A stretch of 64,000 nt of DNA from Bacteroidaceae bacterium (GTDB taxonomy: Bacteria; Bacteroidota; Bacteroidia; Bacteroidales; Marinilabiliaceae), in NCBI GenBank assembly GCA_963618945.1, contig CAVETY010000007.1:4486-68485 (forward strand), in the 5' to 3' direction. The translations under genes were made by a program, and so were the position numbers. The notes under the pieces were generated by a model. The model was not told the DNA's origin. It saw only the letters and a list, made by a program, of their open reading frames with translations, and searched no databases. Shown here in pieces: positions 34,015 through 45,629 of this stretch; position 1 is the stretch's first letter, and every line of letters starts with the position of its first letter.

Positions 34015-36420
34015 CTATTGCGCCTTGAGAGTCAACTGGGCAGAGAGGCCGCAATCGTCATCCGTCACACTTACGGTTATTGAGCCCGGCTTATGTGTAG
34101 CACGAACAATAGCGACCAGCTTACCGCTAAAGAGATTCATAGTCTCGCTCACAAAAGGCGTGAGAGACGTGGCGTCGCCATTGCATGAAGCCTGATAAAC
34201 ACCTGCGCCTGAGACTTTAATAGTCATCTTATCGCTGCAAGTGGGAATGAAATTTCCATCCTTGTCAGCAAGCGAAATTGTAATAAAAGCCAGATCGGCC
34301 CCATCTGCAGCAAGAACATTCTTATCGGCCGAAAGCACGATATGCTCGGGGGCTCCAGCTGTTCGAACCGTGTCACGCCCGGTCTCATTTCCGTCAGCGT
34401 CATACGCCACGACGGCAATCTCGCCTGGCTCATATACGACATCATTCCAACGGAGACGATAACGATCAAGCTTACTATCCTTGTTCTTAGAGATCTTACC
34501 ATGGCTCTTTCCGTTAACGAAAAGTTCAGCCGTAGGAGCATCTGTGTAGCAGTAGACAGGAGTAACTTGCCCCTCACGCCCCTGCCAGTTCCAATGTGGG
34601 AGGAGGTGAGTAGTATGCTCTGCCGTATTCCACTGGCTACGATAGAGATAATAGCGATCCTTGGGGAGGCCGGCAAGGTCACAAATGCCGAAGTAACTGC
34701 TGCGACTTGGCCAATAGGTGTCGTATGGGGTTGGCTCGCCAAGATAGTCGAAGCCAGTCCAGACAAACTGGCCAATAGTGTAACTCAAATCATCCTGAGC
34801 TATGAAATCGTCCTCGGGAATATTGCTCCAAGGGCAGTACTCGGTGTCGTAGCTTGAGCATTGCCCGTCATCATAGACCTTACTATCGGACACCTCAACT
34901 GGGAACTTGTATACGCCTCGGCTTGACACGGTCGAGGCGGTCTCAGACCCAAGGATAATACCCTGCGGAAGGCTATCGATACTCTCCTCATAAAGATGGA
35001 CGCGGTAATTCATGCCAACGACATCCTGAAGCTGCGCAAAGTGATTTTTGATAGCCCAATAGATACGATCCATTCCCTGAGTGACAGGGCGCGTCTCGTC
35101 AAGACTATGGCAGAGATTCTGAAGGCGGACAAGGTTCTCTGGGCCCTCAGACATGCCCTGCTCGGGAATTTCGTTACCGATGCTCCACATGATGACAGAC
35201 GGGTGGTTGCGATGACGGCGGACAAGGTTGGCAATATCCTTGTCACTCCACTCCTTAAAGAAGCGAGCATAGCCGTTCTTGCACTTGGGATATATCCACA
35301 TATCGAAACTCTCGGCCATGACCATCATACCAAGCGAATCGCACACGTCCATCTGCATCTTGCTCGGCATGTTATGGGCAGTGCGGATGGCATCGGCACC
35401 CATATCCTTCATAAGCTTGATCTGACGGATGAACGCAGCCTTGTTCTCAGCAGCGCCAAGGGGGCCCAGGTCATGGTGGAGGCAAACACCCTTTATTTTA
35501 CGGGTTTGGCCATTGAGTTGGAAGCCATTCTCCTTAATCACAGACACTGTTCGAATGCCAGTTTTAAAAGTCTGGACGTCGGACTGTTTATCATCGAGCA
35601 ACAAAGAGACGGAGACAGTGTAGAGGTAGGGCTTCTCGGGAGTCCAGAGCTGCGGATCTGAGACATCAACAGTGCCTGAAAATCCACGAAGCGAATCAGC
35701 CCTGATTGTAACAGCGCTGACAAGGTGACCTTCTGCATCGGCAACAGACACGGCCAATTTGGCCTCGGCACCTGACGGGACATCGATTGCATTGGCATTG
35801 ATGGCGAGAGTAGCCATATCCTTTGCTATATTCTTAGTCCTCACGAAAGTACCCCAATCGTCAAGATAGGCACCTGTATTCGTTATAAGTGTCACTGGGC
35901 GATAAAGACCAGCGCCAGGATACCATCTGCTGCTCTCTTCAACATTCTGAAGCTTAACGAGGATGTCATTCTTCTCGCCAACCTTCATGAAAGGCGTCAT
36001 GTCAACCTCAAAGGCATTATAGCCATAGGCCCAATGTCCAGCCTCCGAGCCGTTAACAAAGACGACAGGCTCACTCATAGCCCCGTCAAAAATAAGCCTT
36101 GCCGAGGTTACACCCTTTTCAATGAAAACTGAAGTTTGATACTGCCCCTCACCAATCCAAGGGAGGGAGCCAGAGCGGCCACTCTTCTCTGTCGCCTCAC
36201 TCTCGCCATTCTGCTCAATGGCGACTGTCTGTAAATCCCACTTCTTATCAAATGGGCCAGCTATTGCCCAATCGTGAGGTATCGAGACATCTTGCCATTC
36301 CTGTCCATCACGGCTGAATTGCCAGCCATCTGAGAGAATCCTCTCCGTGCGCACGGGCTGCTCAGAGCAACTGAGCAACGCAAAGCCAAGCGCACCCATA
36401 AGCAAGGCACTAAATTTCAT
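34015..36420 (-). CDS. Glycoside hydrolase family 2 (beta-galactosidase-like) lipoprotein
   Basis: 801 aa with signal LGFALLSCSE and GH2 TIM-barrel motifs AIRTAHN and NHPSVIMWSIGNE (acid/base Glu). Confidence 0.88.
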   Translation of the reverse strand: MKFSALLMGALGFALLSCSEQPVRTERILSDGWQFSRDGQEWQDVSIPHDWAIAGPFDKKWDLQTVAIEQNGESEATEKSGRSGSLPWIGEGQYQTSVFIEKGVTSARLIFDGAMSEPVVFVNGSEAGHWAYGYNAFEVDMTPFMKVGEKNDILVKLQNVEESSRWYPGAGLYRPVTLITNTGAYLDDWGTFVRTKNIAKDMATLAINANAIDVPSGAEAKLAVSVADAEGHLVSAVTIRADSLRGFSGTVDVSDPQLWTPEKPYLYTVSVSLLLDDKQSDVQTFKTGIRTVSVIKENGFQLNGQTRKIKGVCLHHDLGPLGAAENKAAFIRQIKLMKDMGADAIRTAHNMPSKMQMDVCDSLGMMVMAESFDMWIYPKCKNGYARFFKEWSDKDIANLVRRHRNHPSVIMWSIGNEIPEQGMSEGPENLVRLQNLCHSLDETRPVTQGMDRIYWAIKNHFAQLQDVVGMNYRVHLYEESIDSLPQGIILGSETASTVSSRGVYKFPVEVSDSKVYDDGQCSSYDTEYCPWSNIPEDDFIAQDDLSYTIGQFVWTGFDYLGEPTPYDTYWPSRSSYFGICDLAGLPKDRYYLYRSQWNTAEHTTHLLPHWNWQGREGQVTPVYCYTDAPTAELFVNGKSHGKISKNKDSKLDRYRLRWNDVVYEPGEIAVVAYDADGNETGRDTVRTAGAPEHIVLSADKNVLAADGADLAFITISLADKDGNFIPTCSDKMTIKVSGAGVYQASCNGDATSLTPFVSETMNLFSGKLVAIVRATHKPGSITVSVTDDDCGLSAQLTLKAQ

Positions 36421-36496
36421 TATGCTGTTGAATAGGTTTTAAAATGTGTAGAGTATTTTTAGGCAAATTAACCATAAAATATCAACATTTCCAAAA

Positions 36497-36667
36497 CTAT
36501 CCCTCCCTCTTAGCGCAATCGCACTTGGCCTTTGAATGGGGACAATTTGAGCAGCCTTCACATCCCCCACCCTTCGCAGCGCGTTTGACCGTCCTGACAA
36601 TTTTTATGACGCAGTACACGACTGCGGCAAAGACAACAATTCCGACAATAACGTATTGCATAGTCAT
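36497..36667 (-). CDS. FeoB-associated Cys-rich membrane protein-like small ORF (56 aa), absent from the ORF track
   Basis: Hand translation gives MTMQYVIVGIVVFAAVVYCVIKIVRTVKRAAKGGGCEGCSNCPHSKAKCDCAKREG. That is one TM helix, a basic stretch and a Cys-rich tail. It starts 8 nt after the yigZ stop. Confidence 0.6.
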   Translation of the reverse strand: MTMQYVIVGIVVFAAVVYCVIKIVRTVKRAAKGGGCEGCSNCPHSKAKCDCAKREG

Positions 36668-36675
36668 TTAGGTTT

Positions 36676-37278
36676 CTAAGATTCCGACACATTAACGTCA
36701 TCAAGGTCCGTTAATTTGGCGACCAAAGCATCTCGCTCGCCCATGCGGATAGTTATGTCAATCTCACAATCAGTATCGAACTTCTGTGCGATGATTTTTG
36801 CGGAACTGTCTTTTAGCACCTTCATGACGCCATTCATGGCAAGATAGGGGAATGAGATTGCCAAAGCCGCATCGAACGTCCGAGTCACAATCTGAGCATT
36901 TTGCAGACAATCTGCGGTAGCGGTCTTATAGGCGACAATGAGACCACCAGTTCCAAGTTTTATGCCGCCAAAGTAACGGACAACGACAACAACCACATTA
37001 GTAAGCTCGGCCGAGAGAATTTGACCGAGAATGGGGCGGCCCGCAGTTCCTGACGGCTCACCGTCATCACCTACCTTCGTCTCCCCCTCTCCTGGCCCAA
37101 GGCGCCAAGCGTAACAATGGTGACGTGCGTCATGAAACTCTTTCTGTTTGTCACGGACAATGGCTTTTGCCTCGTCAGCAGTAGTCACGTTATATGCAAA
37201 GGCGAGAAAACGGCTTCCCTTCTCTTTATATATGCCTGTGGACTCCTTATCAACCGTTTTATATTCGTCTGTCATCAT
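36676..37278 (-). CDS. yigZ: IMPACT-family protein YigZ
   Basis: GSRFLAFAY, HHCYAWRLG and DDGEPSGTAGRPIL are typical of the UPF0029/YigZ family. Confidence 0.88.
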   Translation of the reverse strand: MMTDEYKTVDKESTGIYKEKGSRFLAFAYNVTTADEAKAIVRDKQKEFHDARHHCYAWRLGPGEGETKVGDDGEPSGTAGRPILGQILSAELTNVVVVVVRYFGGIKLGTGGLIVAYKTATADCLQNAQIVTRTFDAALAISFPYLAMNGVMKVLKDSSAKIIAQKFDTDCEIDITIRMGERDALVAKLTDLDDVNVSES

Positions 37279-37295
37279 TGGGCTTTAGGGATTTA

Positions 37296-39593
37296 TCAGA
37301 AGCAATAGCCGATATTGACATTGACATTAAACTTGTCATCGGGCGAATACATCAGCGTGAAATCTAAGGGGAAAACACCAAAAAGATTATAAGCTAAAGA
37401 GACACCGCCGCCATGTATGTACTCAATCGGCTTGAACACCTCGCCATCAGTAATGTAATACTCAAGCCCTTTGAATGTAGCGGCAGAATTGATGTGAAAA
37501 AGCAGATGTACATCAGCCACTGCATTCAAGTCGACAGACAGACGAGCCATAGCCGCCGTCGACTCATACCTGTGAGCCGTCAGAAGGCCATAAAAGTCAA
37601 GGTGACTCGGGAGAAACTGAATGGGTCCGCCAATGGCAGTTTTGTGAACAAAAGTCTTATCACCAAAACCAGCAGCCAAACCAATGGTCTCTCCAAGCGA
37701 GACACGGTCGTTCAGGCTCTGATGCAACTCAAGCCTCGCCATGGCGCGCACCAAGAAATCATAATCATTAAGGCCATGAGCATACAGCACCTCACGCGCC
37801 AAACCTCTCTTGATAGAGTATTGAGGGAAAAGCCCGACGTAGGCATTAAAATCCCATTTCACACCAGATTGCGGGAGGAACTTACGATCTAACGAATTAT
37901 ATCGGCTACGCCCGTTTACAAAAAAGTTATTTATATGTCCCTCAATCCGGTCATCGGAATTACCGACATTGGGAATGACATGAAAATCCTCCCAACCCAA
38001 TTTAAGTGAGATATCACGCCGCGGGTTGATGGTGTTACCGATTGCCGCAGAGACCTCATTGTGAACATAATCATATATGTTGGCCGAACTCTCGTGATCA
38101 TCATAGTCGGGGACCTCGAAACGAGAGTGGTCATACATGATGTCAAGATAATGGTTATCCCTCACGCCAAAGAGTGTCCTATTCCTCACTCGGAAACGGA
38201 ACGACTTGGAGATTGCCAATTTAAAATCGGTTGTAGTCAATCGGCCAAGAAGGCTTCTTCGTTGATAGTCAAGAATTACGGCAGCGTTTGCAAAAGAATT
38301 GTAAGACAGCGCCAACTTGAACGTGGTCATGGGGTTTTCGACGACCGTGCACCTGAACGTCACGTCATTACCAGCTTCTCCGACAGGTATTAATTTATAA
38401 ATCAGATTATTGTAATAGCCTGTCGACATGGCCGACTTAATAGCCGCAGTGAAATCGGCCGGCGTATAATAGTGGCCGACATGAAGATTAAGGGCATGAA
38501 GAAGAAGCTTGCTCGTCGTATTCTCAAGTCCCTTGAAATCAAAATCGACTATACGAACTTGAGAGTCGTAAGCCTTGAGGCGATCAGTTTTTGAGTAAGG
38601 AAGTCCGAAAGATTTGTTCAGTGAATCAGCGAGTTGCTTAAAGAGAGGCTCAAACTCCATTCCGATTGAGTCTCCGATGGCCAAAATAGTATCCGCCGCG
38701 GCAAAACTGGCGGCGCTATAACGCGTCACATCAGGTTCAATGACCATGTCGCAGGCGGCTTTCTCCTCATCCAGATCCTTAGCATCCCGGAAATTCGTTA
38801 TCTGGAGCATCACATCGACCATCGAGGATAATTGGTTAACAGGAGTCAAGCCAGAGAACAGATTGACACCGATGACGAAATCGGCACCCATATCGATGAC
38901 GTCACGTACAGGGAAATTGCGCACAATGCCGCCATCAACCAATTTTGTCCCATTGTAGTCAGTTGCAGAGAAAACGCCAGGGATGGCCATGGAGCTACGC
39001 GTGGCAAATGCTATGTCGCCATGATCAAGCACAACTGCGTCGCCATTAGCCAAATCGGCAGCCACACATAGGAATGGGATATCTAACTTACTGAAATCAT
39101 CTACTTTATATACAGGATAAAAAAGCTCCTGCAAATAGGTCATGACCTGATAAGGCGAAAAAAAACCGGTATTGATTTGCGGGACGAACCCCTTCATGGG
39201 CAGTTCGAGCATATAGTTCTCGAACTCGTCTTTCTCCTCTATAGAGATGTCGCCAAGCACGGGTTTGCTGTTGATCAGCTTCATCCACTCCGTTTGGCGC
39301 GAGAGTTGCTCCATCTGCTCACCACTATAGCCCGCAGCATACATTCCGGCCACGATGGCCCCCATACTGGTTCCAGCAATATAGTCAATGTGGAGACCAC
39401 TGCGGTCAATGGCCTTAAGTACACCGATATGCGCCAATCCTTTTGCGCCGCCTCCACTGAGAACAAGACCAATCTTGGGCCTCTCGCCATCGGGACGCTC
39501 ACGTTTAACTATCTGGGCATCAGCATGTGATGACAAAAGAAGGGAGAGGGAGGTTAGAATAAAAAGGGAGGCGTGTTTCAAAAAAGGACTCAT
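37296..39593 (-). CDS. Patatin-like phospholipase fused to a C-terminal outer-membrane beta-barrel
   Basis: Signal peptide, patatin motifs GLVLSGGGAKG and GTSMGA plus a DGG dyad Asp, then about 400 aa of beta-rich sequence ending NIGYCF (aromatic beta-signal). Confidence 0.85.
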   Translation of the reverse strand: MSPFLKHASLFILTSLSLLLSSHADAQIVKRERPDGERPKIGLVLSGGGAKGLAHIGVLKAIDRSGLHIDYIAGTSMGAIVAGMYAAGYSGEQMEQLSRQTEWMKLINSKPVLGDISIEEKDEFENYMLELPMKGFVPQINTGFFSPYQVMTYLQELFYPVYKVDDFSKLDIPFLCVAADLANGDAVVLDHGDIAFATRSSMAIPGVFSATDYNGTKLVDGGIVRNFPVRDVIDMGADFVIGVNLFSGLTPVNQLSSMVDVMLQITNFRDAKDLDEEKAACDMVIEPDVTRYSAASFAAADTILAIGDSIGMEFEPLFKQLADSLNKSFGLPYSKTDRLKAYDSQVRIVDFDFKGLENTTSKLLLHALNLHVGHYYTPADFTAAIKSAMSTGYYNNLIYKLIPVGEAGNDVTFRCTVVENPMTTFKLALSYNSFANAAVILDYQRRSLLGRLTTTDFKLAISKSFRFRVRNRTLFGVRDNHYLDIMYDHSRFEVPDYDDHESSANIYDYVHNEVSAAIGNTINPRRDISLKLGWEDFHVIPNVGNSDDRIEGHINNFFVNGRSRYNSLDRKFLPQSGVKWDFNAYVGLFPQYSIKRGLAREVLYAHGLNDYDFLVRAMARLELHQSLNDRVSLGETIGLAAGFGDKTFVHKTAIGGPIQFLPSHLDFYGLLTAHRYESTAAMARLSVDLNAVADVHLLFHINSAATFKGLEYYITDGEVFKPIEYIHGGGVSLAYNLFGVFPLDFTLMYSPDDKFNVNVNIGYCF

Positions 39594-39802: not shown

Positions 39803-40100
39803 TCAAAAGACATCAAAAATACCCTTAATACGATGCCCCGGTAAACGATTCCACTCATGCAAGCCCCGATAATAGAACATCTTCAATTCGTCGGTAATGA
39901 TAAAAGGTACAATACCACGATTTAAGCATTCCTTAAACATGATAAGTCGCCCACACGACCATTCCCGTCCTGAAAGGGGCGTATAAGTTCAAAACGCTGA
40001 TGAAAGTCAAGAATATCCTCAAAAGAAATCTTCTCTTTATCCTTGTACACCTTTAGCAACTCCCTGTTTCCCTTTCCAACCTGTTCAAAAAACAAGCAGT
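39803..40100 (-). pseudogene. Fic-family (AMPylase/toxin-like) gene remnant: 5'-truncated, frameshifted, active-site His lost
   Basis: Translation reads ...ELLKVYKDKEKISFEDILDFHQRFELIRPFQDGNGRVG, then after a -1 nt shift RLIMFKECLNRGIVPFIITDELKMFYYRGLHEW. The Fic motif HPFxxGNGR reads RPFQDGNGR here. Confidence 0.8.
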
Positions 40101-40105
40101 TTACT

Positions 40106-40528
40106 TTATCTTTTGATTTTAAACTCACCCAGATATACATTAAACCTGCCATGCGGACAGCAGACATCTTCAAACCAAAGATTCGCAGGATTATAATGAA
40201 AATACTTCCCATTCCGGCTCTGAGTCCTTAGAACCTTATAGCACTCGACATCCTTACCTTCTTTATGATAGAAAAATATCATTGAAGAATCAATCTTTGA
40301 TACCATTGTGGCTAAGCCATTTTTTTCTAAAGTATCTTTAATGGTAGGATAGCCGCTAACCATGTCTAATACGCTATTATCCTCGTAATAACACTTGCCA
40401 AATGCCCAATAACACTTAATCGTAACTCGCTTTCTGAAAATATCCCTCAACCCTTTCCCATAGCAATTTGCGCAAGAGACACCAGCAAGCAACAATAATA
40501 AAACTACAGCAATCCTCTTCATAACCAT
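40106..40528 (-). CDS. Hypothetical Cys-rich lipoprotein (AT-rich, likely acquired)
   Basis: Signal plus lipobox MVMKRIAVVLLLLLAGVSC, with 8 Cys in 140 aa. The region is visibly more AT-rich than its neighbours. Confidence 0.5.
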   Translation of the reverse strand: MVMKRIAVVLLLLLAGVSCANCYGKGLRDIFRKRVTIKCYWAFGKCYYEDNSVLDMVSGYPTIKDTLEKNGLATMVSKIDSSMIFFYHKEGKDVECYKVLRTQSRNGKYFHYNPANLWFEDVCCPHGRFNVYLGEFKIKR

Positions 40529-41045
40529 TTGATTTTTCTCTATATAACGCGCCTTACCATGCTTTTATTGTGGTCGGTGTTAGGTGAAATTAATTATTTC
40601 GCACTATCATGTCAAACAAGAACAACTCCGCACAGAAGATAGATTCAGACAATAGCACGTCTCGCCAAGATGGGCATCACCGGCTTACTACATCAGACTG
40701 ACCGAATCTACAAGACAAACAGGAAAGCGGACTGAGCAGTGAACACTAACTCATTCCCTCCCCTTACCGCTTAGTTGGATTTCTAAAGAAATTGTCGTCT
40801 CAAGGCGAGATTCAAAAAGCAAAGAGCAAAGCGACAATTGCTACAATAGTCGCATGTGTGGCATCAGTAATCTCAGTGGCCTCTATTGTTCTCGCTATTG
40901 TTTTATAGGTTGTTACAACGCAAAACGAGCTAAAGACAAAAGCACTCCGCCTCTTTTTTCTGCGCACATACTTTTGAATTACATGTGGCGTGCGTGCGGA
41001 TCGAGATTGGGCAGGTGGCTAAGGCTGTAAGACAAGGAATGGAAA

Positions 41046-41089
41046 CAAAAAAACATGTCCATCATCTGCATTCGCAAATGATGGACATG
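41046..41089 (-). terminator. Rho-independent terminator after the AKR gene
   Basis: Perfect 12-bp stem catgtccatcat / atgatggacatg, followed on the minus strand by TTTTTTT. Confidence 0.75.
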
Positions 41090-41117
41090 ATATTTGACTA
41101 CTTAAATCTCAAGAAAA

Positions 41118-42491
41118 CTACGCCTTGCCATTACGCCTCAGCTTCTCGGCGAAACGGTCAATCCTGTGAAGCTCCTTGGGAATGTCAATGCGCTGTGGAC
41201 AGTGAACCATGCAACGGCCGCAACCGATGCAATAGGTGGCCTGACGCAGCTTAGGCACACTGCGATCATAGCCCACAAGGAAGACACGCCTATTCTCCTC
41301 ATACGCCTTGCGGGCTACTGGATCGGCAGCGTCAACATCCTCAACATGTGGCATATGACCTTCGTTTATGCACTTATTATAGTGCAAAAGGTTGGCTGGA
41401 ATGTCTATGCCATAGGGACAAGGCATACAGTATTTGCAATCATTGCATGGTATCGTGTTAAAGCTGACAATCTCACGCGCAACATCCTCAAGGAAGTCAA
41501 AATCAGAGTCTGATAAGACATCCAAAGGACAATAGGAGACGAGATTATCACGAAGATGCTCCATGTATGTCATGCCACTGAGCACGGTCAGCACTCCTGG
41601 GAAGGAGCCTGCGTAACGGAAAGCCCAAGAGGCCACGCTTCGACTTGGCTCACGCTCCTTCAGCCTTTGCGCCACGTGAGTGTTTACCTTGGCGAGTCGT
41701 CCACCCAAGAGCGGCTCCATGATGACGGACGGGATGCCACGTTTTTGCAACTCGCCATAGAGATACTCGGCATTCGTATTTCTGTCATTTATCTCTTTCG
41801 CATGATGCCAATCAACGTAATTGAGCTGAATCTGCACAAAATCCCAATGACATTCGTCATGACGCGACAAAAGGTAATCAAACACCTCAATGTCACCATG
41901 GTAAGAGAAACCGAGATTACGAATTCGCCCGGCTTTTCGTTCCTCAAGAAGGAAATCAAGCACTCCATTGTCCTCATATCGGCCTCTATAGGCTTCCATG
42001 CCTCCCATGCCGATGCCATGCAACAACAGATAGTCAATATAGTCAGTCTGGAGTTCCTTGAATGAGTTATGGTACATTGCTATAGAGGCCTCACGACTCC
42101 ATGTCTGAGGAGCGAAATTGGACAATTTTGTAGCAATGTAATACTGGTCTCTCGGATGACGTTTAAGCGCGATGCCCGTTGCCCGTTCACTTAAGCCCTT
42201 GCAATAGGCTGGTGAAGTATCGAAATAGTTGACACCATGCTCTAACGCATAATCAACCAATCGGTTGACCATATCCTGATCTATTTCATCATTTTCATCA
42301 GTTGGCCAACGCATGCAACCATATCCAAGAATCGAGACACGATCACCTGTGGTCGGATTGGTTCGATATGTCATCGCCCCCTTCTGCTCCTCTGCCTCCT
42401 TGACATCATCATTGCCAGAAGATGAGCAGCCTGCCACAGCCACGGCGGCAGCACCTGCGCCTATCCGTTTCAGAAAATCTCGTCTCTCCAT
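41118..42491 (-). CDS. Tat-signal lipoprotein aldo/keto reductase with C-terminal 2x[4Fe-4S]-type ferredoxin domain
   Basis: Twin-arginine motif MERRDFLKRIG with lipobox AVAGC. AKR tetrad context: YFDTSPAY, IATKL and DYLLLHG. C-terminal CNDCKYCMPCP and CIGCGRCMVHCP. Confidence 0.85.
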   Translation of the reverse strand: MERRDFLKRIGAGAAAVAVAGCSSSGNDDVKEAEEQKGAMTYRTNPTTGDRVSILGYGCMRWPTDENDEIDQDMVNRLVDYALEHGVNYFDTSPAYCKGLSERATGIALKRHPRDQYYIATKLSNFAPQTWSREASIAMYHNSFKELQTDYIDYLLLHGIGMGGMEAYRGRYEDNGVLDFLLEERKAGRIRNLGFSYHGDIEVFDYLLSRHDECHWDFVQIQLNYVDWHHAKEINDRNTNAEYLYGELQKRGIPSVIMEPLLGGRLAKVNTHVAQRLKEREPSRSVASWAFRYAGSFPGVLTVLSGMTYMEHLRDNLVSYCPLDVLSDSDFDFLEDVAREIVSFNTIPCNDCKYCMPCPYGIDIPANLLHYNKCINEGHMPHVEDVDAADPVARKAYEENRRVFLVGYDRSVPKLRQATYCIGCGRCMVHCPQRIDIPKELHRIDRFAEKLRRNGKA

Positions 42492-42528
42492 ATCAGCAAA
42501 AATATCTAAAGAATAATACCGACTACTT

Positions 42529-44151
42529 TTAGTTCACCCTGTGATTTTCATGGCCCTCGACATAGATTGCGCTCAAAGGCCGTGTGGGGCAAACATGTTC
42601 GCACGCTCCACAGCCGATGCAACGATCCTCGTGGACTGCAGGAATGCGCAAATCAGGATTGTCAGGATGTTTAACCATTGCGATAGCGCCCATGGGGCAG
42701 TGGCGTGCGCAGTTACCACACTTCACACCCTCCGCATTTACGACGCACCTGTCCGCCACCCAAACGGCGTGACCAATCACAATAGAGCTTTTCTCGGACA
42801 AATCAATATGTTCAATTGCCCCCGCAGGGCAAACAACCGAACAAACATTACACTCCGGCCTACAATAGCCTCGCTCGTAGCTCATGCGAGGCTGCATGAA
42901 AGTGGCGAGGTCAGACGATGGACGCAACACCCCATTGGGACATTTGGCGACACAGACCTGACACCCCGTGCATCGCCTACTGAACTGACGAAGACTCCGC
43001 GCTCCTGGTGGCACAAGGGGAACCTCCCTACGTGAAGGCTTTTTATCCTCAATAATGGCGAGACCGCCATCAGCGACCTTATCCTCCTGAGATTTTACAG
43101 CGGAAGCAGCCACTAACCCAATCCCGACCAAAAACGCACGTTTAGAGACATCAGCTGTTGGGGCTTCAGATGATTGACTATCCTCAGTTTGACCTTCGGC
43201 CGAGGTCACTTTATCATTTAAATGCCTCTTATAGCGAATTGTATATGAAATGGCACCTTTCCGACAATTATCAATACAGTTAAAGCAAGTGACGCAACGG
43301 GAACCATCAATCTCCTGTCCTTTCTCCCTTGGACCATTGATTTTAATACAGGCTGCCTTACAATTCTTTTCACACATTTTGCACCCTACACACTTAGAGC
43401 TGTTAATCACAGGCGCAAAAAGAGAAAACTTAGCTACATAGCCAAGAATGGTACCCACGGGGCAAATAGTATTGCAATAAGTCCTACCATTACGCCATGC
43501 AAGGACGGCAACCGCCACGAAAGTAACTAACGCAACAATAAAAACGGGCAAAGACCGCAACCAAATGTCGGACCTACTAAAAGTATAGTCATCAAAAGAT
43601 TCAGACCCGAAAGCCAAGAGATTGTTGAGTAATTGATATAACGGCTGAAAAAGGTTCTGCGCTATCCTACCAAAAGAGCTGTAGGGGGCAAGGAGGGCAA
43701 CGACACTGCCAAGCCCAACAACCATGGCCAAGATAAAAACAAATAGCACAACAAGCCTCAAAACAGTCTTTGCAGGAGAATATGAATACCTGCGTTTGCG
43801 GGCTCGGAGTCCGAGACGACCAAAGAGATCCTGCAGAAGTCCCATTGGACAGATGACCGAACAATAAATGCGGCCGAAGAGGAGAGTCAGCAGGACAATG
43901 ACAGAGACTACGATGAAATTACCAGCCATAAAAGCTGGTAGAATTTGAATATGCGTCAGCCAATGTAAATGCTCAGCGGCAAATCCGCTCACATCGACAA
44001 ACAAAAACGTTATGGCGGCAAGCATTAGGATGCCTAAAATCATTCGTATGATGCGCAGCATATTCATTACTCTGGTTTTTTGATTTGCTAATGTAGTCAA
44101 AAGAGAAATCAGGAGGAATACCCAAATTACATTATTGCCATTATTCGACAT
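42529..44151 (-). CDS. Membrane polyferredoxin: NapH-like (CX3CP, 4 TM, 2 clusters) fused to NapG-like (4 clusters) module
   Basis: CSVICPMG and CNTICPVG follow TM pairs. Next come CVGCKMCEKNC and CVTCFNCIDNC, then SKRAFLVGIGLVAASAV. The last part has LVPPGA..CTGCQVCVAKCP, CRPECNVCSVVCP, KCGNCARHCP and CIGCGACEHVCP, as in NapG. Alternative starts are at ATG 44067 and 44061. Confidence 0.8.
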   Translation of the reverse strand: MSNNGNNVIWVFLLISLLTTLANQKTRVMNMLRIIRMILGILMLAAITFLFVDVSGFAAEHLHWLTHIQILPAFMAGNFIVVSVIVLLTLLFGRIYCSVICPMGLLQDLFGRLGLRARKRRYSYSPAKTVLRLVVLFVFILAMVVGLGSVVALLAPYSSFGRIAQNLFQPLYQLLNNLLAFGSESFDDYTFSRSDIWLRSLPVFIVALVTFVAVAVLAWRNGRTYCNTICPVGTILGYVAKFSLFAPVINSSKCVGCKMCEKNCKAACIKINGPREKGQEIDGSRCVTCFNCIDNCRKGAISYTIRYKRHLNDKVTSAEGQTEDSQSSEAPTADVSKRAFLVGIGLVAASAVKSQEDKVADGGLAIIEDKKPSRREVPLVPPGARSLRQFSRRCTGCQVCVAKCPNGVLRPSSDLATFMQPRMSYERGYCRPECNVCSVVCPAGAIEHIDLSEKSSIVIGHAVWVADRCVVNAEGVKCGNCARHCPMGAIAMVKHPDNPDLRIPAVHEDRCIGCGACEHVCPTRPLSAIYVEGHENHRVN

Positions 44152-44345
44152 TATTAAGACGCAATCTCAAAAAAAAGATGTGCGCTGCACTGTTAATTGC
44201 CAATACTTACATATTGCTTGCCCCCTGACACAGATTGGCGATACACACAAATTGCGAAGGCTTCTCAAAAACATTGGCAACTCATTAGATGCCTCTAAAT
44301 CTACATTTGCGTCATCACGATAACTATCAATTTACCACCTACAAT

Positions 44346-44384
44346 AAAAAAACAAAGGGGCGACCACACTTATGTGATCACCCC
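44346..44384 (-). terminator. Imperfect hairpin plus T-run about 150 nt downstream of rplI
   Basis: The minus strand reads ggggtgatcac-ataa-gtgtggtcgcccc followed by TTTGTTTTTTT. Confidence 0.4.
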
Positions 44385-44536
44385 TATGTGTGTGTGTTGA
44401 AAATGTATCTGCGTTGTTAATGCAAATTCGCACCGGGCAAACCCAGCTACTTTACAGTCTCAGTAAATTAGCTTACAGTCCAAAAATCCGAAAGACGGAC
44501 AACCAGCAAAGGCTCGGCACACTGGTTAAAATCGGC

Positions 44537-44983
44537 TTACTCAGCGACTACGTCGAACTCAACGTCAACGGACACCTCACGGTGGAGTTTGACCTGAGCG
44601 GTGTAGTGACCAAGCTCCTTGACAGCCTCCTCTTTGACGAGGATGATCTTGCGGTCAATGTCGAAGCCCTTCTCCTTGAGCGCCTCAGCGATCTGGATGT
44701 TGGTGACAGAACCGAAGATTTTGCCGGTAGAGCTGGCCTTAGTGCCGATGGTGAGGGTAACACCCTGCATTTTAGCAGCGAGATCCTCAGCGTCCTGCTT
44801 AATCTTAGCGAGCTTGTGTGCACGCTGCTTAAGGTTCTCAGCGAGTTCCTTGCGAGCAGACTCAGTTGCGAGGATGGCGATGCCTTTGGGGATAAGATAG
44901 TTGCGACCGTAGCCAGGCTTGACAGAGATGATGTCGTCCTTGTGACCGAGCTTCGCAACGTCAGTCTTCAAAATAACTTCCAT
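44537..44983 (-). CDS. rplI: 50S ribosomal protein L9
   Basis: MEVILKTDVAKLGHKDDIISVKPGYGRNYLIP is the L9 N-domain signature. Confidence 0.97.
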   Translation of the reverse strand: MEVILKTDVAKLGHKDDIISVKPGYGRNYLIPKGIAILATESARKELAENLKQRAHKLAKIKQDAEDLAAKMQGVTLTIGTKASSTGKIFGSVTNIQIAEALKEKGFDIDRKIILVKEEAVKELGHYTAQVKLHREVSVDVEFDVVAE

Positions 44984-45005
44984 TGTGCTGTTTTCTCTTT
45001 AAGAT

Positions 45006-45275
45006 TTACTTCAACAGGTCGGTTACGTAGGGCAGAAGGGCCAGGTGACGAGCACGCTTTACAGCCTTAGCCACCTTGCGCTGGAACTTGAGAGAGGTGC
45101 CAGTGATGCGGCGGGGGAGGATCTTGCCCTGCTCGTTGAGGAACTTCTTGAGGAACTCAGGGTTCTTGTAGTCGACGTACTTGATACCGCTGCGCTTGAA
45201 GCGACAGTACTTCTTCTTCTTAACTTCGACAGTTGGAGGGGTGAGATAACGAATCTCAGAAGATGCTTGTGCCAT
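45006..45275 (-). CDS. rpsR: 30S ribosomal protein S18
   Basis: [18 protein letters not shown] ... [10 protein letters not shown] ... [19 protein letters not shown]. Confidence 0.97.
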
Positions 45276-45278
45276 TTC

Positions 45279-45629
45279 TTAGTTCTCCTTTACTTCTTCT
45301 TTTTTAGCTTGGTTTCTACGAGTCTCACTGTACTTGACAGCGTACTTCTCCTGCTTGAAAGTCAGGAAGCGGAGCAGACGCTCATCGCGACGATAGGCGG
45401 TCTCGAGCTTGTTGATGAAGCTGGGGTCAGCCTTGAACTCGAACAGGTTGTAGAAACCTGTGGTCTTCTTCTGAATCGGGTAAGCGAGTTTACGCATGCC
45501 CCAATTCTCTTCGTTTACCATCTCACCTCCGTTGGCAAGGATGAGGTCCTTGTACTTCTGGACCGCTTCCTTCATCTGAGCATCAGACAAAACGGGAGTT
45601 AAAATGAAAACGGTTTCGTAGTTGTTCAT
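45279..45629 (-). CDS. rpsF: 30S ribosomal protein S6
   Basis: [16 protein letters not shown] ... [11 protein letters not shown]. It is the first gene of the S6-S18-L9 operon. Confidence 0.97.

Follow-up and report, generated by a model that had tools for sequence, protein, structure and literature searches.

The stretch of DNA analysed here, hereafter called the window, comprises 64,000 nucleotides of contig CAVETY010000007.1 from a Bacteroidaceae bacterium and carries on its reverse strand two adjacent genes, named gene 1 and gene 2, which encode a membrane-bound polyferredoxin and an exported aldo/keto reductase (AKR) with an additional iron-sulphur (Fe-S) domain. Together they represent a real and widespread periplasmic redox module of the NapGH type, whose catalytic subunit belongs to a new class. 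The gene coordinates (taken from the list of open reading frames, ORFs, of the window), the spacer and the terminator were all found as claimed in an earlier reading made from the letters alone (the sequence-only reading), and the unit is built as follows:

42529 to 44151, reverse strand: gene 1, polyferredoxin; longest ORF 540 amino acids (aa), probable start at M29 (44067), which gives 512 aa
42492 to 42528, reverse strand: intergenic spacer between gene 1 and gene 2, 37 nt, read from the sequence
41118 to 42491, reverse strand: gene 2, lipoprotein of 457 aa combining an AKR barrel with a dicluster domain at the C-terminus; AlphaFold2 (AF2) model with pLDDT 92 and pTM 0.87
41054 to 41089, reverse strand: intrinsic terminator 3' of gene 2, a perfect 12-bp stem extendable to 16 pairs, then a T-run
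44356 to 44385, reverse strand: terminator of the upstream rpsF-rpsR-rplI operon, 5' boundary of the gene 1-gene 2 unit

Because the second terminator (44385..44356) closes the rpsF-rpsR-rplI operon, gene 1 and gene 2 form a separate two-gene unit.

Gene 2 is composed of an export signal, a barrel and a helical Fe-S domain:

42426 to 42491, reverse strand: twin-arginine signal ERRDFLK and lipobox VAGC (Cys22); TIGR01409 22.6 against a cutoff of 16.7
41472 to 42374, reverse strand: AKR (beta/alpha)8 barrel with D91, Y96, K122 and H158, found with PF00248, Foldseek and hhalign
41142 to 41459, reverse strand: helical dicluster domain with C349/352/355/358 and C421/424/427/431, matched by Fer4_9, Fer4_10 and Fer4_17

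The signal for twin-arginine translocation (Tat) and the lipobox, both proposed before, are thus confirmed, and the RR motif is conserved across clades of AKR relatives down to approximately 33% identity. A lipobox-like Cys was found in 71 of 116 distinct AKR signals. The residues following the lipobox Cys are too little acidic for the surface-export signal of Bacteroidetes; the signal data fit an AKR that faces the periplasm, where it would be reachable for a protein anchored in the inner membrane. Residues 55-336 matched Aldo_ket_red (PF00248) with an E-value of 3.7e-37 and 128.4 bits (gathering cutoff 24), and all top Foldseek matches of the model were AKRs, with E-values around 1e-14 and TM-scores of 0.7-0.8 by target length. 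The catalytic tetrad, which had been suspected from its sequence context, could be aligned residue by residue: D91, Y96, K122 and H158 correspond to D43, Y48, K77 and H110 of AKR1B1 (hhalign probability 95%, with a self-consistent alignment), and the tetrad is invariant or nearly invariant in 146 relatives. The C-terminal Fer4 matches span residues 348-448. Here, the two ferredoxin-type Cys motifs of the sequence-only reading are indeed present, and their eight Cys are invariant in 24 diverse members and invariant or nearly so in 146, but the first motif reads CxxCxxCxxCP and does not end in xxxC. Further invariant or near-invariant family residues are R61, Y89, H198, W216, D227, W228, M258, E259 and Y354. 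Searches of the PDB by Foldseek and by sequence returned only classical AKRs covering the barrel alone and no structure of an AKR barrel fused to a ferredoxin.

In gene 1, a NapH-like membrane module is joined to a four-cluster domain of the NapG-like type, with the following parts:

43402 to 44067, reverse strand: NapH-like membrane module with four transmembrane (TM) helices, hydropathy peaks of 2.5-3.0, AF2 helices with pLDDT 80-95
43846 to 43863, reverse strand: CX3CP motif after the second helix, residues 97-102
43459 to 43476, reverse strand: CX3CP motif after the fourth helix, residues 226-231
43264 to 43392, reverse strand: two CxxCxxCxxxC motifs (residues 254-264 and 286-296) of a dicluster ferredoxin domain after TM4
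43096 to 43146, reverse strand: internal twin-arginine-type motif SKRAFL with a short h-region, the fifth, predicted Tat-dependent TM helix
42532 to 43065, reverse strand: NapG-like domain with four [4Fe-4S] motifs (Cys motifs 394-404, 430-441, 469-485 and 511-521), predicted to be periplasmic

Gene callers assigned a length of 510, 512 or 540 aa, and relatives have about 500 aa; M29 (44067) is most likely the true start, giving 512 aa, because the relatives begin with MLRKIR. Pfam reported Fer4_5 twice and many Fer4 families with E-values down to 3e-22, a custom hidden Markov model (HMM) for the NapH part scored 355 bits, and partial NCBIfam matches cover residues 206-310 (NapH) and 363-531 (NapG/MauM). 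The protein displays the NapH architecture of four TM helices, two CX3CP motifs and two C-terminal [4Fe-4S] motifs as well as the NapG-type layout of four Cys motifs with a preceding twin-arginine-type signal, which is internal in this case. All 24 cluster Cys, 16 of them in the NapG-like domain, are invariant among 73 relatives. Hence, the earlier domain assignments hold for the NapH/NapG-like motifs and, by Pfam, for the AKR and Fer4 domains, whereas the curated HMM cutoffs for NapH and NapG were missed; gene 1 resembles both families, yet stands outside both by these thresholds.

The linker between the two parts of gene 1 ends in SKRAFLVGIGLVAASAV, where a twin-arginine-like motif precedes a short stretch of weak hydrophobicity. 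This internal motif was overlooked in the sequence-only reading, as were the dual Sec/Tat topology and the partner genes described below. An [RK]R occupies this position in each of the 99 distinct linkers taken from fused relatives, and the R is invariant: 88 show a clear RR, seven including the window KR, and four RR together with an acidic residue in the h-region; RR is also present in B. fragilis and four distant clade members. The 19-residue Kyte-Doolittle maximum of the fifth TM helix stays below 1.4, versus 2.5-3.0 for TM1-4. The AF2 model (pLDDT 74) contains confident membrane helices, a disordered linker and the four-cluster domain, and a helix at 308-328 (512-aa numbering) starts at the KR motif. 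A fold search against the PDB gave nothing significant (best E-value 0.02), a sequence search there retrieved only generic ferredoxin modules, and the membrane part occurs in no solved structure. By analogy with the published NapH topology, the dicluster domain after TM4 is predicted on the cytoplasmic side. A polytopic polyferredoxin that represents a NapH-NapG fusion has been described by Tooke et al. (2017, eLife, PMC5449189), with Sec inserting four helices and Tat the fifth helix and the Fe-S domain; the need for Sec and Tat was shown experimentally for the deltaproteobacterial protein. Gene 1 shares with it the number of five TM helices, the weak hydrophobicity of the fifth, which directly follows a twin-arginine motif, and a multi-cluster domain at the C-terminus. 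It differs in carrying KR, and its likeness to the MLMS-1 protein is one of architecture. Chloroflexi, Nitrospirae, Euryarchaeota and a deltaproteobacterium are on the list of that study, Bacteroidales are not; it names no catalytic partner and contains the word "aldo" 0 times.

The pairing of both genes is widely conserved. Among 80 species-representative genomes with a close AKR relative, nearly all of them Bacteroidales, the polyferredoxin gene lies immediately upstream on the same strand in 70, immediately downstream in two and within about 1.4 kb in another two; most of the others represent contig ends. In a second clade (34-45% identity; Desulfovibrionaceae, Leptospirales and others), the pair was found in five of six neighbourhoods, there with reversed gene order, gaps of 0-13 nt and in one case split into NapH-like and NapG-like genes. 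For a controlled comparison, 80 metagenome loci were retrieved with an alignment of signal-less family members, and 170-odd loci were scored with home-made HMMs, counting testable AKRs under a strict Tat-signal rule. A NapH-like module was present within 2.5 kb of 108 of the 116 AKR-FeS proteins with a Tat signal versus 0 of the 18 signal-less ones (Fisher p 1.7e-16, which overstates the evidence as the loci are not phylogenetically independent). The polyferredoxin thus goes with AKR export, and the pairing is not due to chance. The co-occurrence check, which had been set beforehand, therefore turned out in favour of the pair, including distant phyla, and nothing in the tests run spoke against a functional coupling of gene 1 and gene 2. 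The module occurs in a large proportion of Bacteroidales species (B. fragilis, Alistipes, Prevotella, Parabacteroides, Muribaculaceae) and on human-gut metagenome contigs.

These data bear on the simplest alternative, namely that the signal is non-functional and gene 2 an ordinary cytoplasmic NAD(P)H-dependent AKR located by accident beside an unrelated ferredoxin gene. The intact AKR fold and tetrad would agree with it, and databases annotate gene 2 simply as an aldo/keto reductase. However, the RR signal is kept at low identity, the adjacency of the polyferredoxin is tied to the signal, tatA and tatC belong to the same cluster in B. fragilis and the eight Cys of the AKR are invariant, which makes this explanation extremely improbable.

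Some relatives deviate from the common arrangement. A minority of loci (L086-L088, L099, L104, L106, L126, L131) have a Tat-signal AKR-FeS gene and no polyferredoxin within 3.5 kb; among them, AKR-FeS proteins of the P0506 type, with an RR motif and no lipobox, are encoded beside an arginine-biosynthesis operon. A split version exists in L093 (5353-9873), where the Tat-AKR-FeS gene is followed by a 188-aa protein with Fer4_5 only and a separate 229-aa ferredoxin, and where an [FeFe]-hydrogenase-like gene is situated immediately upstream. Single signal-less AKR-FeS fusions were found to MsrA, a histidine phosphatase, GCS2 plus Peptidase_C26, a TPP-enzyme N-domain and an FkbM-like methyltransferase (P0384, P0337, P0343, P0345, P0313); they may be real or gene-call artefacts. 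Finally, in three loci a diverged signal-less AKR-FeS paralogue (about 385 aa, 76-97 bits, full model) lies directly 3' of the Tat-AKR-FeS gene:

L007, 7393 to 8544: signal-less AKR-FeS paralogue
L035, 3383 to 4546: signal-less AKR-FeS paralogue
L125, 2213 to 3382: signal-less AKR-FeS paralogue

Beyond the polyferredoxin, further genes recur at the 116 loci with a Tat-signal AKR:

TM1506/DUF1893: 34 of 116 loci
ECF-S-like membrane protein of about 170 aa: 28 of 116 loci
Flavodoxin_4 protein with a signal: 6 of 116 loci

In addition, tatC adjoins the pair in 24 of these loci, which supports export of the AKR, and among the first 80 genome loci a TonB-dependent receptor (about 630 aa) was found in seven and DUF362 in five. 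The fullest version is the cluster of B. fragilis, in which DUF362, polyferredoxin, Tat-AKR-FeS, TM1506, TonB-dependent receptor, ECF-S-like protein, TatA and TatC are encoded co-directionally and tightly spaced, followed by a hybrid sensor kinase and a sigma-54 regulator. Here, tatA and tatC (L174, 13788-14774) are the last genes, directly after the ECF-S-like gene with gaps of -1 and 3 nt, and it represents a possibility that Tat in these bacteria mainly serves the AKR-FeS system. Exported AKRs carry a fused TM1506 at their C-terminus in P0242, L017 and L033, and at their N-terminus in P0271. Because of these fusions, and because TM1506 proteins encoded by separate genes lack a signal, TM1506 is most simply regarded as physically associated with the AKR and would be exported along with it. 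The accessory genes suggest that a small molecule might cross the outer membrane inwards, be converted in the periplasm and then be imported. The TonB receptor belongs to the generic B12/siderophore-like type and scored below all NCBIfam cutoffs; TM1506, the ECF-S-like protein and DUF362 were not assigned to any family by NCBIfam. DUF362 is related to LarA at clan level only. In Duncaniella, the Bacteroidetes small RNA FopS (RF04319; 59.2 bits, gathering cutoff 56) lies just 3' of the AKR-TM1506-permease genes (L001, 8855-8922).

Part of this neighbourhood was reported before. Iyer et al. (2011, PMC3239186) linked TM1506 to an aldo/keto reductase and a 5TM protein, noted fusions to TonB receptors and proposed that TM1506 binds NAD or ADP-ribose. 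The neighbourhoods share the same AKR family, TM1506, a small multi-helix membrane protein and TonB receptors; the window locus differs in having neither TM1506 nor the permease. In that paper the AKR's C-terminal domain was described as a zinc ribbon of rubredoxin-like type, and Fe-S clusters, Tat, polyferredoxin or tatAC do not appear. On a Firmicute-like contig, a signal-less AKR-FeS gene is followed by genes for an ECF_trnsprt protein, TM1506, a Fer4-nitroreductase fusion and a flavin mononucleotide (FMN) reductase. The core of AKR-FeS, TM1506 and permease therefore predates export, and soluble flavo- and Fe-S proteins stand in where the polyferredoxin is absent. The Fer4-nitroreductase and FMN reductase beside the signal-less AKR suggest that electrons would be delivered to the Fe-S domain and not directly by NAD(P)H.

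This leads to the question of the cofactor. According to hhalign, the nicotinamide-stacking Tyr209 of AKR1B1 corresponds to the invariant Met258 of gene 2 and Asn160 to Tyr197, and no basic residue is found at the NADP 2'-phosphate positions Lys262 or Arg268. The closest solved relatives are NAD-dependent L-galactose dehydrogenases (E-values of 1e-16 to 5e-23), and the barrel keeps the AKR cofactor-side motifs xGM...N, Q222 and N316, which are common to these enzymes. The sequence-only reading had considered a pre-bound nicotinamide. In this scenario, the AKR would be exported with tightly bound NAD(P), the Fe-S chain would re-reduce or re-oxidise the nicotinamide, and TM1506 might handle the nucleotide. 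A model for it is the glucose-fructose oxidoreductase (GFOR) of Zymomonas mobilis, a Rossmann-fold enzyme that is exported by Tat in the folded state with bound NADP. Gene 2 resembles GFOR as an oxidoreductase presumably exported folded and loaded with its cofactors; GFOR has no Fe-S centre and no membrane partner and recycles its cofactor between two soluble substrates. The retained cofactor-side motifs and the recurrent, sometimes fused TM1506 are in favour of such a nicotinamide, and export of a nicotinamide-type AKR appears to occur: in the B. fragilis cluster (L174, 5760-6929; GCA_021411665.1, JAHYPP010000001.1) a second, classical AKR of 389 aa with AYSPL-type motifs and no Fe-S domain carries the twin-arginine signal KRFSRRSFLKTAALTGAGMM. 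However, Fe-S clusters pass single electrons and NAD(P)+ reduction in one-electron steps needs a flavin, the NAD radical couple being near -0.9 V. The Pfam scan detected no flavin-binding domain in either protein, and with one-electron donors and no such domain the Fe-S regeneration of a pre-bound nicotinamide in gene 2 is chemically unlikely. Together with the replaced stacking Tyr and Asn160 and the missing 2'-phosphate residues, this renders the scenario doubtful, and we regard it as quite improbable. Beside the classical AKR of L174, Abhydrolase_6 and DUF362 proteins with Sec-type signals are encoded, with an RND efflux pump upstream.

Our preferred reading, which we place slightly on the probable side, is a redox module facing the periplasm in which electrons flow from menaquinol, as suggested by analogy with NapGH, to the AKR and the substrate is reduced stepwise without NAD(P)H. 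Domain content, conservation, synteny and the tie of the signal to the partner are observations; as to cluster occupancy, topology, donor, direction and substrate, we infer the following scheme. Sec would insert the four-helix NapH-like module with its two CX3CP motifs and two [4Fe-4S] clusters, then the internal KR/RR motif and the weakly hydrophobic fifth helix would pass the folded NapG-like domain to Tat, which would place its four clusters on the periplasmic side. The product of gene 2 would acquire its fold and two [4Fe-4S] clusters while still in the cytoplasm, then be exported by Tat and attached by a lipid anchor; in many relatives the signal-less TM1506 partner would go with it. Eight [4Fe-4S] clusters, six from gene 1 and two from gene 2, could then wire the membrane to the AKR active site, which keeps the Asp-Tyr-Lys-His proton-relay tetrad. 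Most likely, electrons would leave the membrane for a bound small molecule, menaquinol being the donor in analogy to NapGH and NosGH, and two one-electron/proton steps would reduce this substrate without NAD(P)H. The potential of the substrate is probably fairly positive, as in a quinone or an activated dicarbonyl. In the fuller clusters, the substrate may enter via the TonB-dependent receptor, while the product may leave via the small ECF-S-like permease. The direction from menaquinol to the AKR is favoured because of the NapGH/NosGH precedent and the donor-type genes beside the signal-less relative; NapGH and NosGH are taken to oxidise quinol and to supply reductases of the periplasm (PMC5449189). 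More tentatively, as a proposal somewhat more doubtful than probable, the AKR-fold enzyme working without NAD(P)H, and driven by the eight-cluster chain, may be the catalytic subunit of a new periplasmic reductase system for respiration or salvage in anaerobes including gut Bacteroidales, with TM1506 as co-exported subunit and, in species like B. fragilis, a Tat system encoded within it and perhaps largely dedicated to it.

Several points weigh against this scheme. The curated models place gene 1 far below the NapH cutoffs (TIGR02163 59.7 vs 213 bits, NF007013 56.2 vs 234 bits) and the NapG cutoffs (NF007012 75.4 vs 269 bits, TIGR00397 73.1 vs 178.85 bits), its internal motif in the window is KR (SKRAFLVGIG), not RR, and HMM searches of the 64 kb of the window found none of TM1506, permease, receptor and tatC. 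The L-galactose dehydrogenases share xGM...N with gene 2 and are likewise without the same AKR1 residues; nicotinamide binding by gene 2 would be compatible with its sequence. No experimental study of any family member was found in the searchable literature, which mostly leaves out subscription journals. Quinol oxidation by gene 1 would be extrapolated from its likeness to NapGH only, and not all Fer4_5 proteins are quinol dehydrogenases, as the Fer4_5 protein CcoG illustrates. Moreover, menaquinol has a potential of about -74 mV and an ordinary carbonyl of about -200 mV, so the reduction would be uphill; unless the potential of the substrate is higher, this speaks for the reverse direction. 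This gap thus points to a higher-potential substrate, to a low-potential cytoplasmic donor or to a dehydrogenase that feeds the quinone pool.

In the last case the exported AKR would oxidise a sugar, alcohol or hemiacetal, and its two clusters and the polyferredoxin would carry the electrons to the menaquinone pool, to serve fumarate respiration, for instance. By textbook potentials, the oxidation of aldoses or alcohols with menaquinone is downhill, the closest solved relatives of gene 2 are L-galactose dehydrogenases, and the architecture fits both directions equally. Nevertheless, all characterised modules of the NapGH, NosGH and MauMN types are known to send electrons outward to enzymes of the periplasm, the signal-less relative is flanked by likely donors, FMN reductase and Fer4-nitroreductase, and the stepwise reduction of a quinone-like molecule is easier to account for than hydride abstraction from a C-H bond when neither nicotinamide nor flavin serves as acceptor. 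We therefore consider the opposite direction as rather unlikely. The ranking is, hence, stepwise NAD(P)H-free reduction first, the dehydrogenase direction second and a bound nicotinamide third.

A low-potential donor would imply that the polyferredoxin acts as a transmembrane conduit and not as a quinol dehydrogenase, with its cytoplasmic-side clusters accepting electrons from a soluble low-potential ferredoxin or flavodoxin. Such a conduit would remove the thermodynamic objection and make low-potential carbonyls reducible, and it would give a role to the two invariant clusters predicted on the cytoplasmic side, whose function in NapH is unexplained. Flavodoxin genes recur near the module, and in L050 (4633-5928; Bacteroides sp.) two signal-bearing Flavodoxin_4 genes directly upstream of Tat-AKR-FeS replace the polyferredoxin. 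However, no gene for a cytoplasmic donor is consistently linked to the pair, the flavodoxins adjoining it carry signals and are thus exported, not cytoplasmic, and the published evidence on NapGH points to quinol oxidation (PMC5449189). The conduit is judged unlikely, and the menaquinol-fed, stepwise reduction remains our preferred reading.

Compared with known systems, the module combines familiar and unfamiliar traits. As in NapGH, NosGH and MauMN, a membrane part of four helices, equipped with two CX3CP motifs and two [4Fe-4S] motifs, is combined with a four-cluster ferredoxin predicted on the periplasmic side, and the genes stand beside one for a Tat-exported periplasmic redox enzyme. In contrast, both parts are fused in gene 1, whose HMM scores lie far below the NapH/NapG cutoffs, the client is an AKR-fold Fe-S protein and not a molybdo-, copper- or tryptophan tryptophylquinone (TTQ)-maturation enzyme, and a NapC-type cytochrome is absent. 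With classical AKRs such as L-galactose dehydrogenase, AKR11C1 and AKR1B1, gene 2 shares the (beta/alpha)8 barrel and the Asp-Tyr-Lys-His tetrad, whereas it adds a C-terminal domain with two [4Fe-4S] motifs and an export signal, has no 2'-phosphate site and shows the family-specific invariant residues R61, H198, W216, D227, M258 and Y354.

The transcription and the surroundings of the pair in the window were also inspected. Upstream of gene 1, no convincing promoter consensus and no exact Bacteroides TAnnTTTG motif was detected, a relaxed Bacteroides-type motif TTTTTTTG is present at 44175, and the sigma-70 scan stayed at chance level. Riboswitch searches, which might have identified the ligand, gave none in the window at 40500-45000, the sole match being the terminator hairpin as a weak miRNA match, and none in 11 gene-rich loci of relatives, with the FopS small RNA as the sole match. 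Beyond the terminator (39922-40528), a 140-aa ORF with a lipoprotein-like N-terminus (40106..40528, reverse strand) and an overlapping short ORF are located; its counterpart on the near-identical contig L176 has a weak Fic match, and it is probably a gene remnant. The flanking genes (34015-39593 and 44537-45629) look unrelated to the pair, their translations being judged by eye without a domain scan:

34015 to 36420: GH2 beta-galactosidase-like gene
36676 to 37278: IMPACT/YigZ-like gene
37296 to 39593: gene for a patatin with an outer-membrane-barrel-like part
44537 to 45629: rpsF-rpsR-rplI operon

Regarding novelty, the NapH-NapG fusion architecture (2017) and the AKR-TM1506-5TM neighbourhood (2011) were already known. 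The sequence-only reading knew of no described quinol:AKR pathway, and in this respect it stands, although these two components are published: within the searchable literature, which includes few subscription-journal papers, we found no pairing of a polyferredoxin with a Tat-exported Fe-S AKR, no characterised Fe-S AKR and no link to tatAC. A 2026 preprint on an acetol dehydrogenase was rejected as precedent, because its enzyme is a GMC flavoprotein and the match to "naph" refers to naphthoquinones.

AKRs are textbook NAD(P)H enzymes; hence, an exported AKR wired to the membrane would, if true, represent a new catalytic logic for the superfamily, and NapGH-like modules would gain the AKR-fold enzyme as a client of a new type. 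The module could be an unrecognised extracytoplasmic route by which a dietary, host or microbial small molecule is reduced or oxidised. Moreover, the pair offers a natural test case for the dual Sec/Tat insertion of membrane proteins in Bacteroidota and points to a possible function of the orphan families TM1506/DUF1893 and DUF362. Finally, it might be a possible reason why these bacteria retain a Tat system.

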